This document shows positions 24,095 through 26,593 of a stretch of DNA of 64,000 nt, one piece after another (position 1 is the first letter of the stretch; each line of letters begins with the position of its first letter). The stretch is taken from positions 49,101 to 113,100 of the forward strand of contig CAOPES010000006.1 of assembly GCA_948502395.1 (NCBI GenBank), in the 5' to 3' direction. This stretch comes from an uncultured Clostridia bacterium (GTDB lineage Bacteria > Bacillota > Clostridia > TANB77 > CAG-508). A model generated the notes under the pieces. It was not told the origin of the DNA. It was given only the letters and a program-made list of their open reading frames with translations, and searched no databases. Made by a program: the position numbers and the translations under genes.

Positions 24095-26593
24095 ATGGAA
24101 AAAACACGTTTAAGCAAATTCTATCTAGATAAAGAAAAAGATATAAAAGTAAGTATATATCGTGAAAACGAAGACGAACTAAGATATATTATAGAAACAC
24201 CAAACCATGGTACTGGAAACTTAATTACAAATTTGGCCAAATTATGTAAGGTTGACACTGTGAAAAATGAAAATGATATGAAAATAATTACAGGAACAAT
24301 TCCAGCAAGTATTAATGGTGATAATGAAATTGTGTATATATTAAGATTAGGCGGTATAAAGCTAGCAAATATATATGAAGATGGAGTAATTGAAGTAAGA
24401 GCAAAAGTGCCAGCTATTACAAAAACATTGATGTCACAAACGAAAAATTATAATCTACATTTAAAAAAGACAATTGTTAAATCAAACATATTGAAAAAGT
24501 CAAAGTTCAGAACAGATTTACATACACATATGAATGCTAATTTATCTCCTGACGTACTAATTGCATTAGGAATAAAACATCAAGTTAGATATCCGTTATA
24601 TTACATAAAGAAATTAAAATTAATAATGAGTAAAGAGCAAGAAGAAAAAATATTAAAACAAAGAGCAGAAGTGGAAGAAAAATACAAAGATTGCAAATTA
24701 GAAGGAAAATATAAAATAAGAAAAATTGATGATAATACTTTTATAAATTTTGCAGATTTTATATTAAATAATTTAGAAAATGCATCACATAATATTGCAA
24801 AAATAAGAAATAGTCTATCAATATTAAAAGATGGGCAAGCGGTTTTTACCAACCTTGAGAAATTATATATTTATAGATATGCGTTTACGAAAGGAAAAGA
24901 AGCTGACTACAAAATTGATTTAGATATAGAAAAAATAAACAAAATCCCAAAAGATGGAGTAAAAAGAAAATTAAAACAAATGTTAAATGATAAAGAAAAT
25001 CCAGAGTTGAAAAATATAACATTAAGACAAGATAAATATTTATGGATTGCTAGGGAATATCAAAAACAGAAAATTGATTATACAGAAATTGCAGATTCAG
25101 ATTTAGTAAAAGCAAATGGTCCTGCAATACAGCTAATTGAAGAAGTGCATGAAATAATGCCATATATAGAGAAGGAAACAGGTGTAAAAATTCGATTATT
25201 GGCAGCATTAAGAAGAATTCCGCTTACAATTATTGAAAGTCAAATAATTGGTGGAAATTATTTAAGAGAAAACCTAGATGTTCTAAAAACAGTTGCCAAA
25301 AGCCCATATGTTGTAGGTAGTGATTTTATGGGGGAAGAAATAAACGATATATCAGATTTAAAACCAGCCATAAAAGAGCTAGTTGAATATGTTGCAGATG
25401 TGGACAAAGATTTTACGATAAGAATACATGCAGGTGAAAATGATAGTTTAAGAGATAATGTGGCAAAATCAATTGAATGTATAAAAGAAGGATTAAAACC
25501 AGGTCAGGAAATGCCGAAAGTGAGATTAGGTCATGGGTTATACACAGCAGATTTAAAATCAAAAGAAGGAAAAAAATTAATAAAAGAATTAAAAGAAGGA
25601 AATGTTGTGTTAGAGTTTCAATTAACATCAAATGTAAGATTGAATAATCTAAGTAATTTAAAATTACACCCTATAAAAACATATTTAAAAAATGATATAA
25701 AATGTGTTCAGGGAACAGATGGATGTGGATTTTATGGTGTTGATACAATTGATGAGCAATTAGCACTTCAAAATTTATTAGGGCTTACTGATAGCGATTT
25801 TCAAAAAATGAGAAAAGTGGAAGATGAAATTATTGCAGATAGAGAGATATATTTTAAAAAGAAATCAGCAGAATTTGAAAAGTTCTTAAATGGAAGAACA
25901 ATAACAGAAGCCTTAACACAGCTAGAAAAAGAGAACATTGAAAAAGGAAAAGCAAATAATCAGCCTATGAGAATAAACAAAAACATAGAAGCAGAAACCA
26001 AATTGAGAAAGAAGATAAAGCAACTTCCAATAAACAAAGTTCCAATTATTATTGCAGGTGGAAGTTTTAATAAAAAAGGAAGAAACACAGAAGTAACACC
26101 AGAAGGAAAGATGATTTTAGAAGAATTGATTAAAAAAGTAAATACTGACAAAGCATATTTTGTAATTGGTCACAAAATGGAAGGATATGAAAAAGAAATA
26201 TTCAATATAAGCAATAAATTAAACAAGAAATTTGAAATAGATGCAATAGTTCCTAAAATGGTATCAGAAGAAGAGTCAGACAAATTGCTAAAAGAAGACT
26301 TAGATGGTGTTAGAATTTCTATTGAAAGTGATGAAATGGGAATATACAAGAGTTTTAACTACGAAATTTTTGAAAGAAGAAGTTCAGTAGTTATGGCATT
26401 TGACGGAAATTCACCAGTATCAAACTTGGTACAAGAAGCTAAAAATGGAAAAGGAAAGGCAAAAATCTATGTAAATGATAAAAATCCTGTTTTATCTGAT
26501 AAAGCACAAAATTTAGGCGGATATGTTGTACCTTTTAGCTTAGAACAAAACATCGTTAATAAAATTTTACAAGATAATCCAGATATTTTATAG
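24095..26593 (+). CDS. 832-aa hypothetical multidomain protein: adenosine/AMP-deaminase-like amidohydrolase core flanked by an unknown N-terminal domain and a C-terminal Rossmann (SLOG/LOG-like) domain
   Basis: ADA-like metal motifs TDLHTHMNANLSPD (HxH), IRIHAGEND (HAGE) and QGTDGCG. C-terminal VPIIIAGGSFNKKG...FVIGHKMEGYEKE resembles LOG/SLOG Rossmann folds. Own extended -10 promoter (TTGCAA ...TGTTACAAT). Confidence 0.55.
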   Translation: MEKTRLSKFYLDKEKDIKVSIYRENEDELRYIIETPNHGTGNLITNLAKLCKVDTVKNENDMKIITGTIPASINGDNEIVYILRLGGIKLANIYEDGVIEVRAKVPAITKTLMSQTKNYNLHLKKTIVKSNILKKSKFRTDLHTHMNANLSPDVLIALGIKHQVRYPLYYIKKLKLIMSKEQEEKILKQRAEVEEKYKDCKLEGKYKIRKIDDNTFINFADFILNNLENASHNIAKIRNSLSILKDGQAVFTNLEKLYIYRYAFTKGKEADYKIDLDIEKINKIPKDGVKRKLKQMLNDKENPELKNITLRQDKYLWIAREYQKQKIDYTEIADSDLVKANGPAIQLIEEVHEIMPYIEKETGVKIRLLAALRRIPLTIIESQIIGGNYLRENLDVLKTVAKSPYVVGSDFMGEEINDISDLKPAIKELVEYVADVDKDFTIRIHAGENDSLRDNVAKSIECIKEGLKPGQEMPKVRLGHGLYTADLKSKEGKKLIKELKEGNVVLEFQLTSNVRLNNLSNLKLHPIKTYLKNDIKCVQGTDGCGFYGVDTIDEQLALQNLLGLTDSDFQKMRKVEDEIIADREIYFKKKSAEFEKFLNGRTITEALTQLEKENIEKGKANNQPMRINKNIEAETKLRKKIKQLPINKVPIIIAGGSFNKKGRNTEVTPEGKMILEELIKKVNTDKAYFVIGHKMEGYEKEIFNISNKLNKKFEIDAIVPKMVSEEESDKLLKEDLDGVRISIESDEMGIYKSFNYEIFERRSSVVMAFDGNSPVSNLVQEAKNGKGKAKIYVNDKNPVLSDKAQNLGGYVVPFSLEQNIVNKILQDNPDIL

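Follow-up and report, generated by a model that had tools for sequence, protein, structure and literature searches.

A three-domain ADA-SLOG protein of gut Clostridia as a candidate adenine-nucleotide deaminase

We analysed 64,000 nucleotides of DNA from an uncultured Clostridia bacterium (GTDB lineage Bacteria; Bacillota; Clostridia; TANB77; CAG-508), corresponding to positions 49,101 to 113,100 of the forward strand of contig CAOPES010000006.1 (GenBank assembly GCA_948502395.1) and hereafter called the window, and concentrated on one gene therein that encodes an 832-residue protein joining an adenosine deaminase (ADA)-fold catalytic domain to a C-terminal domain of the SLOG superfamily. Relatives of this ADA-SLOG protein form a widespread, unstudied family, and in this species the gene has a fixed place at a core chromosomal locus. 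The explanation that we favour, tentatively and at somewhat under an even chance, is that of a SLOG-coupled adenine-nucleotide deaminase acting in the control of the purine pool.

A previous reading of the window made from the sequence alone (the sequence-only reading) had pointed to metal-binding motifs of the ADA/AMP-deaminase fold (LHTHMN at residues 142-147, IRIHAGE at 442-448 and GTDGCG at 540-545), and all of them lie within a match to the Pfam A_deaminase model (PF00962; E 1.8e-19, 70.4 bits against a cutoff of 27) that was likewise obtained with 35 of 35 aligned relatives. The catalytic domain carries clade-specific insertions within residues ~176-320. Across the 35 sequences, which span 21-97% identity (alignment A1), residues H143, H145, H445, E448, H480 and D542 are invariant, a set that aligns with ADA structures and comprises the four metal ligands, the catalytic glutamate and the catalytic histidine of ADA. 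Two positions of the substrate pocket are replaced. First, alignment with mouse ADA pairs 'lhvhlDga' with 'lhthmNan' and thereby makes N147 the equivalent of D19; this position is never Asp or Glu in the 35 family members and is Asn in 51 of the 58 clade members. Second, alignment with Plasmodium ADA pairs 'nsDDpg' with 'gtDGcg' and makes G543 the equivalent of D296, with Gly at this position in 33/35 family members and in all 58 clade members. The ADA signature PS00485 of PROSITE, [SA]-[LIVM]-[NGS]-[STA]-D-D-P, is not matched by the sequence V-Q-G-T-D-G-C found here, and the NCBIfam adenosine-deaminase equivalogs TIGR01430 and PRK09358 are not reached (54.1 versus 459 bits and 50.3 versus 216.55 bits, respectively). 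On these sequence grounds we conclude that the ADA-SLOG protein should be an active deaminase, and that it would be other than a canonical adenosine deaminase because the D19 and D296 equivalents are replaced and the scores fall far under the equivalog cutoffs.

ADA-fold enzymes that deaminate ATP are a recent discovery, known from RdrB of RADAR and Cad1/CAAD of CRISPR systems, both of which are tied to dedicated immune partners. Cad1/CAAD, which converts ATP to inosine triphosphate (ITP) in type III CRISPR systems, resembles the ADA-SLOG protein in combining an ADA-fold effector with a Rossmannoid ligand-binding domain, and in both proteins the D19 and D296 positions are substituted while the metal and catalytic residues are kept. 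In TaqCad1 the replacements are G264 for D19 and N549 for D296; this enzyme does not deaminate adenosine and turns ATP into ITP, an activity that is destroyed when the G264/N549 substitutions are reverted (PMC12669630). Mouse ADA, according to Sideraki et al. 1996 as cited in PMC12669630, is crippled by substitutions of D296. By analogy, the replacements in the ADA-SLOG protein suggest an adenine nucleotide rather than adenosine as substrate, which is our leading guess. We also considered a catalytically dead pseudo-enzyme that serves as a nucleotide-binding scaffold only, as might be read from the broken canonical signature (TDG for TDD) and the missing D19, but invariance of the metal ligands and of the catalytic Glu and His across 21-97% identity is unexpected for a dead enzyme and Cad1 is active with comparable substitutions (PMC12669630), so that we hold this to be the least probable of the alternatives and very remote indeed.

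The likeness to Cad1/CAAD has its bounds. When the family profile was compared with sequences in the PDB, classical ADAs ranked top (6n9m, 1.9e-19), the match to Cad1/CAAD was weak but real (9ubl, 9ebt and 9c67, E ~1e-4 to 4e-3) and that to the RdrB structure 8fnw was not significant (E 0.49). In contrast to Cad1, which carries a CARF domain for binding cyclic oligoadenylate at the N-terminus, the partner domain here is a SLOG domain at the C-terminus and an additional beta domain occupies the N-terminus; D296 is replaced by Gly here and by Asn in Cad1, the ADA domain here is closer by sequence to classical ADA, and no CRISPR or cyclic oligoadenylate synthase gene was found in ~12.4-41.3 kb of the window. 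The classical ADAs that gave the best sequence and profile matches (mouse 1a4l, Plasmodium 3ewd, bacterial 6n9m) have the TIM-barrel, HxH, HAGE, GHG and metal-binding Asp in common with the ADA-SLOG protein, but are ~330-370 residues long as opposed to 832 and lack its D19/D296 replacements, its insertions at residues ~176-320 and its extra N- and C-terminal domains. RdrB, an ATP/dATP deaminase, is, like the ADA-SLOG protein, a large ADA-family protein (~800 residues) with extra domains, yet shows no significant similarity to it. Membership tests for Add, Cad1, RdrB, ThsA and LOG placed the protein in none of these groups; its closest working analogue is Cad1/CAAD, its closest sequence relatives are classical ADAs and the closest structures to its tail are SLOG domains of the LSDAT/LOG type.

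SLOG domains are known as sensor or processing modules of Thoeris, TRPM2 channels and LOG enzymes. The sequence-only reading had seen a SLOG/LOG-like Rossmann domain in the C-terminal region IIIAGGSFNKKG...VIGHKMEGYE, and the predicted structure model of this region agrees, as it displays the three-layer Rossmannoid fold of LOG, DprA, TRPM-MHR, ThsA and YpsA. Its structural relatives (match values in brackets) include Moco carrier protein 2iz5 (12.5), TM1055 (1rcu; 11.6), the MHR domains of TRPM5, TRPM8 and TRPM2 (10.4-11.6), TT1887 (1weh; 11.5), PpnN/YgdH (9us2; 11.0), DprA (3maj; 10.8), the ThsA SLOG domain with 3'cADPR (7uxs; 9.2) and YpsA (2nx2; 8.5). Neither the first 140 nor the last 217 residues matched a Pfam or NCBIfam model. 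The C-terminus of the window protein gave no Pfam match even at E<=10 and none to the curated SLOG models (LSDAT_prok/euk, Lysine_decarbox/LOG, YpsA, DprA), and the C-terminal profile found only sub-threshold TRPM8 MHR matches (E ~0.2) among PDB sequences; LSDAT_prok appeared below threshold in 8 of 35 family members (e.g. 16.8 and 15.6 bits against a cutoff of 25.4; best 4e-5). The SLOG assignment is supported by predicted structure and weak at the sequence level. In relation to the superfamily (the LSDAT/TRPM-MHR clade and ThsA, LOG and Moco carrier proteins) the glycine motifs are degenerate: the two SLOG loops read TGGTNxGVEK and GGGxVVxDxIQ in most of the family, and IGHKMxGYE and FDGNSPVSN in the clade of the window protein, where they are strongly conserved. 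Despite the changed loops, G692, G697, E699, G771, Q780 and N784 are invariant. The catalytic motif of LOG enzymes is PGGxGTxxE, and with AFDGNSPVSN as its counterpart a LOG enzyme was rejected for the window clade. As for the ~140-residue N-terminus, which had been described as unassigned and indeed has no Pfam match, its predicted model is beta-rich, with no match to a Rossmann fold and none to the CARF models of Pfam, and is followed by a low-confidence linker at residues 123-138. Both predicted structure models were built on shallow alignments of 14-15 sequences.

From these comparisons we draw the following inferences about which class of substrate is used, how the SLOG domain acts allosterically and what the protein does in the cell. 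The protein would be a zinc-dependent hydrolytic deaminase of the ADA fold that probably acts on a phosphorylated or otherwise modified adenine compound, not on free adenosine, and the conversion of ATP or dATP into ITP or dITP would be the first candidate reaction. The most likely task of the SLOG domain is to bind a nucleotide-type ligand, to bring about oligomerisation, or both, and it may in this way control the deaminase, a control that we propose by comparison with the CARF domain of Cad1, the SLOG domain of ThsA and the TRPM2 MHR domain, and the N-terminal beta domain would be a family-specific accessory module. In the gut Clostridia lineage we thus envisage a fixed monocistronic chromosomal gene that most likely serves in controlling the purine-nucleotide pool, and not a mobile defence cassette.

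Table 1. Coordinates of the ADA-SLOG gene, its parts and surroundings (window positions unless a locus is named)
Feature	Position	Strand	Remarks
Complete open reading frame, three-domain ADA-SLOG protein, 832 residues, ATG start	24095..26593	+	sole long frame there; full-length homologues 830-860 residues
Sigma-70-type promoter-like site TTGCAA-17-TGnTACAAT	24018..24046	+	consensus match only; extended TG
Strong ribosome-binding site AAAGGGGG, 5 nt before ATG	24082..24089	+	read from sequence
Long hairpin between spoIIIAH and ADA-SLOG gene	~23933..24009		fold -53.2 kcal/mol, z -9.55
N-terminal beta-rich domain, residues 1 to ~122	24095..24460	+	predicted model; fold family not assigned
ADA-fold (amidohydrolase TIM-barrel) catalytic domain, residues ~139-590	24509..25864	+	Pfam PF00962 at residues 140-187 and 319-574
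LHTHMN motif, residues 142-147	24518..24535	+	H143 and H145, metal ligands; N147 at position of ribose-binding Asp19 of mouse ADA
HAGE motif	25427..25438	+	H445, third metal ligand; E448, catalytic Glu; aligns with HAGE of Plasmodium ADA
TDG motif	25715..25723	+	D542, metal ligand; G543 in place of canonical ADA Asp296 (canonical TDD)
Helical linker, residues ~591-645	25865..26029	+	AlphaFold2 helix over model residues 4-21, then low-confidence stretch; poorly conserved in family
C-terminal SLOG-superfamily Rossmannoid domain (predicted), residues ~646-832	26030..26590	+	glycine motifs degenerate: VIGHKMEGYE, AFDGNSPVSN
spoIIIA operon, spoIIIAA to spoIIIAH	18495-23930		upstream of ADA-SLOG gene; spoIIIAH at 23259-23930
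rny	26720-28267		downstream of ADA-SLOG gene
~150-residue helical family member	L061 9501-9959		
~150-residue helical family members	L064 9429-9902 and 11728-12189		
~150-residue helical family member	L065 8477-8944		
~150-residue helical family member	L067 286-771		

The protein had been called an orphan, a description that does not survive database searches. With a threshold of E<=1e-3, a word-indexed protein search returned 5599 matches, of which the top 120 all spanned the full length (825-862 residues) at 72-97% identity, two of these carrying the source annotation 'adenosine deaminase [Clostridia bacterium]'; an exhaustive HMMER search of representatives at 50% identity gave 761 clusters at that threshold and 146 at E<=1e-30. 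Taking one genome per species, we retrieved 56 loci at 55-97% identity, that is at least 56 species-level genomes with full-length relatives, all from uncultured gut Clostridia (e.g. Clostridium sp. CAG:343 and Ca. Merdicola). The broader family (700-1000 residues, 21-38% identity) shows the same three-part layout in alignment A1 and comes from Christensenellaceae, Ignavibacteriales, Rickettsiales, gut 'Azospirillum', Alphaproteobacteria and metagenome-assembled genomes of Saccharibacteria. No description of an ADA-SLOG fusion was found in the searchable literature, and a 2022 review on NAD and ADP-ribose mentions no ADA fusion.

The open reading frame proposed earlier is real and starts with ATG, and it lies, as reported, between the spoIIIA operon and rny in surroundings of core genes (yebC, spoIIIA, rny, ymdB, spoVS, recA and scpA). 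Its own extended -10 promoter was likewise recovered as a consensus match (TTGCAA-17-TACAAT with TG), and rny has a near-consensus promoter of its own, for which reason the ADA-SLOG gene looks monocistronic. The long palindromic repeat said to precede the gene is present as a hairpin but is not specific to the gene, as its arm GGGACGGACCTTTTTGGCAA (23945-23988) was found again at 39189-39208, 45037-45056 and 49039-49058 of the window, where none would be expected by chance; this suggests that the hairpin is one copy of a family of dispersed palindromic elements, either resembling repetitive extragenic palindromes (REP) or terminators. It probably ends the spoIIIA transcript and was not scored as a canonical terminator. 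Twenty-two contigs with an identical Rny fall into six distinct neighbourhoods, and the 832-residue gene stands directly upstream of rny in all six, whereas the order spoIIIA-gene-rny is confined to the three closest genomes (>=94% identity) and other species of the clade carry the gene at different chromosomal positions. The sequence-only reading had asked whether the neighbourhood is variable and island-like; it is a fixed core locus within the species, and the position of the gene varies across genera.

The ADA-SLOG gene adjoins spoIIIAH in the window and in three close relatives, and M23 peptidase genes occur near it elsewhere in the clade and at a distant Clostridia locus with Coat_F; this could speak for a function linked to sporulation, for instance an adjustment of adenine nucleotides or inosine tied to the SpoIIIA-SpoIIQ channel or to germination. 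This is very unlikely in our estimate: a sigma-A-like promoter of its own precedes the gene, with a strong hairpin between it and spoIIIA; the adjacency is seen in one genus and only at >=94% identity; members of the family are found in non-sporulating phyla too; and spoIIIAA itself is split in this genome. This sporulation ATPase gene is found in two open reading frames, 18495-19097 and 19120-19335, that cover positions 4-176 and 193-252 of the 306 positions of the Spore_III_AA profile; a pseudogene, a frameshift and a true split are all conceivable, and the close relative L002 has a comparable pair of 201 and 71 residues.

The sequence-only reading had proposed a single-gene nucleotide-modifying role in defence or signalling. 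Its description of the protein stands as far as the ADA-fold core, the intact metal ligands, the SLOG tail and an N-terminus without known family are concerned, and the role itself found no positive support. A PADLOC scan of the ADA-SLOG protein returned no family at E<=1, and no partner of the TIR, CD-NTase, Cas10/CRISPR or RdrA-like ATPase type was seen nearby, the genes at ~12.4-41.3 kb of the window being of the housekeeping or sporulation type. RADAR was rejected on the profile value for RdrB (E 0.49) and the lack of an RdrA partner, and so was Thoeris, whose ThsA joins SLOG to a SIR2 or TM effector, given no PADLOC match, no neighbouring TIR gene (ThsB), no SIR2 domain and an effector that is an ADA here. 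A mobile origin was also rejected, as neither peptide-pattern scans of IMG/VR nor tblastn of phage and plasmid records returned relatives. One may nonetheless picture a single-gene anti-phage or abortive-infection effector in the manner of Cad1 or RdrB, whose SLOG domain senses an infection signal such as a cyclic ADP-ribose (cADPR) isomer, ADP-ribose (ADPR) or a phage product and unleashes deamination of ATP or dATP, depleting ATP and flooding the cell with ITP or dITP. Such an effector would fit the active-site substitutions parallel to those of Cad1, the action of SLOG domains as sensors, the variable position across genera, the mobile-element hotspot downstream in some species and the location of an Azospirillum-like locus beside recombinases, and a Ham1/ITPase neighbour would fit ITP clean-up. 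We consider it unlikely in view of the missing PADLOC match, the lack of a signal-generating partner (TIR, CD-NTase, Cas10) or RdrA-like ATPase, the core locus in 6/6 distinct neighbourhoods (22 contigs), the absence of relatives from the phage, plasmid and IMG/VR collections, a divergence similar to that of neighbouring chromosomal genes and the degenerate SLOG glycine motifs of the window clade. Nothing found shows an anti-phage role.

Neighbourhoods elsewhere in the clade and family bear on a metabolic role. In 22 of 59 clade loci the gene immediately upstream, in the same orientation, encodes a GuaD-type guanine deaminase (153 residues; best PDB match B. subtilis GuaD, 1wkq, 1.4e-38); GuaD is a purine-base deaminase of the unrelated cytidine deaminase fold and thus a neighbour, not a homologue, of the ADA-SLOG protein. 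The conserved block runs from a nonribosomal peptide synthetase gene through genes for an HtrA-like protease and an M23 peptidase to guaD and then the ADA-SLOG gene, and a search of the 64-kb window for the guaD, M23 and htrA genes found none of them. On the downstream side of the ADA-SLOG gene the surroundings vary in these other species. Among loci sharing the block, mean pairwise identity is 73% for the ADA-SLOG gene, 72% for guaD, 76% for the htrA-like gene and 81% for the M23 gene, and because their divergence is similar, these genes appear to be co-inherited. In the distant family, neighbourhoods vary and genes of nucleotide metabolism recur (Ham1/ITPase, hisZ-purA, NUDIX, and HD_4 with RelA_SpoT), as in one Saccharibacteria locus, where a gene of the Ham1/ITPase family (L069, 3352-3951) lies beside the family member in divergent orientation. 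This neighbour, a single observation, would suit the clean-up of ITP or dITP if the deaminase acts on ATP or dATP.

A plainer explanation is that of a purine-salvage enzyme of the ordinary kind, a deaminase of adenosine or adenine to which further domains have been added, in which the SLOG domain may be a nucleosidase of the LOG or PpnN type that splits AMP and so supplies adenine to the ADA domain. The family is common both in gut bacteria with reduced genomes and in Saccharibacteria, organisms that depend on salvage; the guaD neighbour in 22/59 loci, the Pfam A_deaminase match and the source annotation 'adenosine deaminase' would also fit. The LOG motif PGGxGTxxE, however, reads FDGNSPVSN here, the scores are far under the equivalog cutoffs, and both adenosine-binding aspartates are missing throughout the family; changes of D296 are reported to cripple mouse ADA (as cited in PMC12669630). 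We therefore judge salvage to be quite unlikely, somewhat more so than the anti-phage effector. Nor does the protein look like a housekeeping enzyme with a conserved position, the outcome that the sequence-only reading had named as speaking against it: the equivalogs are matched below cutoff only, D19 and D296 are absent and the position is not conserved.

Several points weigh against the adenine-nucleotide deaminase that we favour. The choice of substrate draws on two residues at which the protein is analogous to Cad1. Glycine-rich SLOG motifs kept by the rest of the family are lost in the window clade (GG replaced by GH and GGG by DGN), so that the sensing of a ligand may have changed or disappeared there. 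A gene position that differs between genera is unusual for a strictly housekeeping gene, the adjacency to guaD was inherited as one arrangement, does not count as several independent events and is interrupted by other genes in some loci, and the metabolic neighbours other than guaD were each seen once.

Further observations concern the flanks of family members and of the window gene. In one abundant gut species (L057-L060, ~10500-18500), the flank just after the ADA homologue is occupied by integrated mobile elements that differ between samples (RepA_N/Mob_Pre, or type IV secretion system pilin and TraG-like genes) and looks like an integration hotspot; the flank in L058 also contains genes for tRNA-Arg and tRNA-Pro. 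A distant Clostridia subfamily has, adjoining and often overlapping the ADA-SLOG gene, a conserved gene for a helical protein of ~150 residues without Pfam match, with paralogues nearby (Table 1), and this protein may be a partner of the ADA-SLOG protein in that subfamily; as part of the locus studied here it was rejected, no homologue being present in the window. HD_4 and RelA_SpoT genes follow the ADA-SLOG gene in L064. Between rny and ymdB of the window, a 606-residue leucine-rich-repeat protein of the BspA type (28821-30641) is inserted, beside a 68-residue helix-turn-helix gene on the minus strand (~28315-28521). The insertion is present in strains of this species, and no leucine-rich-repeat match was seen in the close relatives L002 and L008, whose gaps between rny and ymdB measure ~1.8 kb with other open reading frames and ~0.5 kb, respectively. 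Upstream, a 566-residue DUF6583 protein (16758-18458) directly precedes the spoIIIA operon, an order kept in the close relatives L001, L002 and L008, and a 317-residue protein of the RhuM family with Fic/DOC (12391-13344), of a toxin-like or mobile-element type, is encoded upstream of a heavy-metal P-type ATPase gene.

A large and broad family has substitutions at the two pocket positions that are also substituted in Cad1, is joined to a SLOG domain, and is encoded at a fixed place on the chromosome of gut bacteria that are abundant and have reduced genomes. Should the protein be a plain salvage enzyme, the finding would be minor. A bolder possibility, to which we give only a small chance, comparable to that of the anti-phage effector, is a new class of ligand-gated ATP/dATP deaminases in which SLOG, not CARF, senses a nucleotide second messenger or a stress signal, for example ADPR, a cADPR isomer or an alarmone, and turns the ATP pool into ITP, as a stand-alone switch for growth arrest or anti-phage action widespread in gut Clostridia, Saccharibacteria and Alphaproteobacteria. 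If the protein is a regulated nucleotide deaminase, the SLOG superfamily would gain a new pairing of ligand and effector, and either ATP-to-ITP conversion would reach beyond immunity into general control of nucleotide pools or an immune effector that works without a partner would be revealed.

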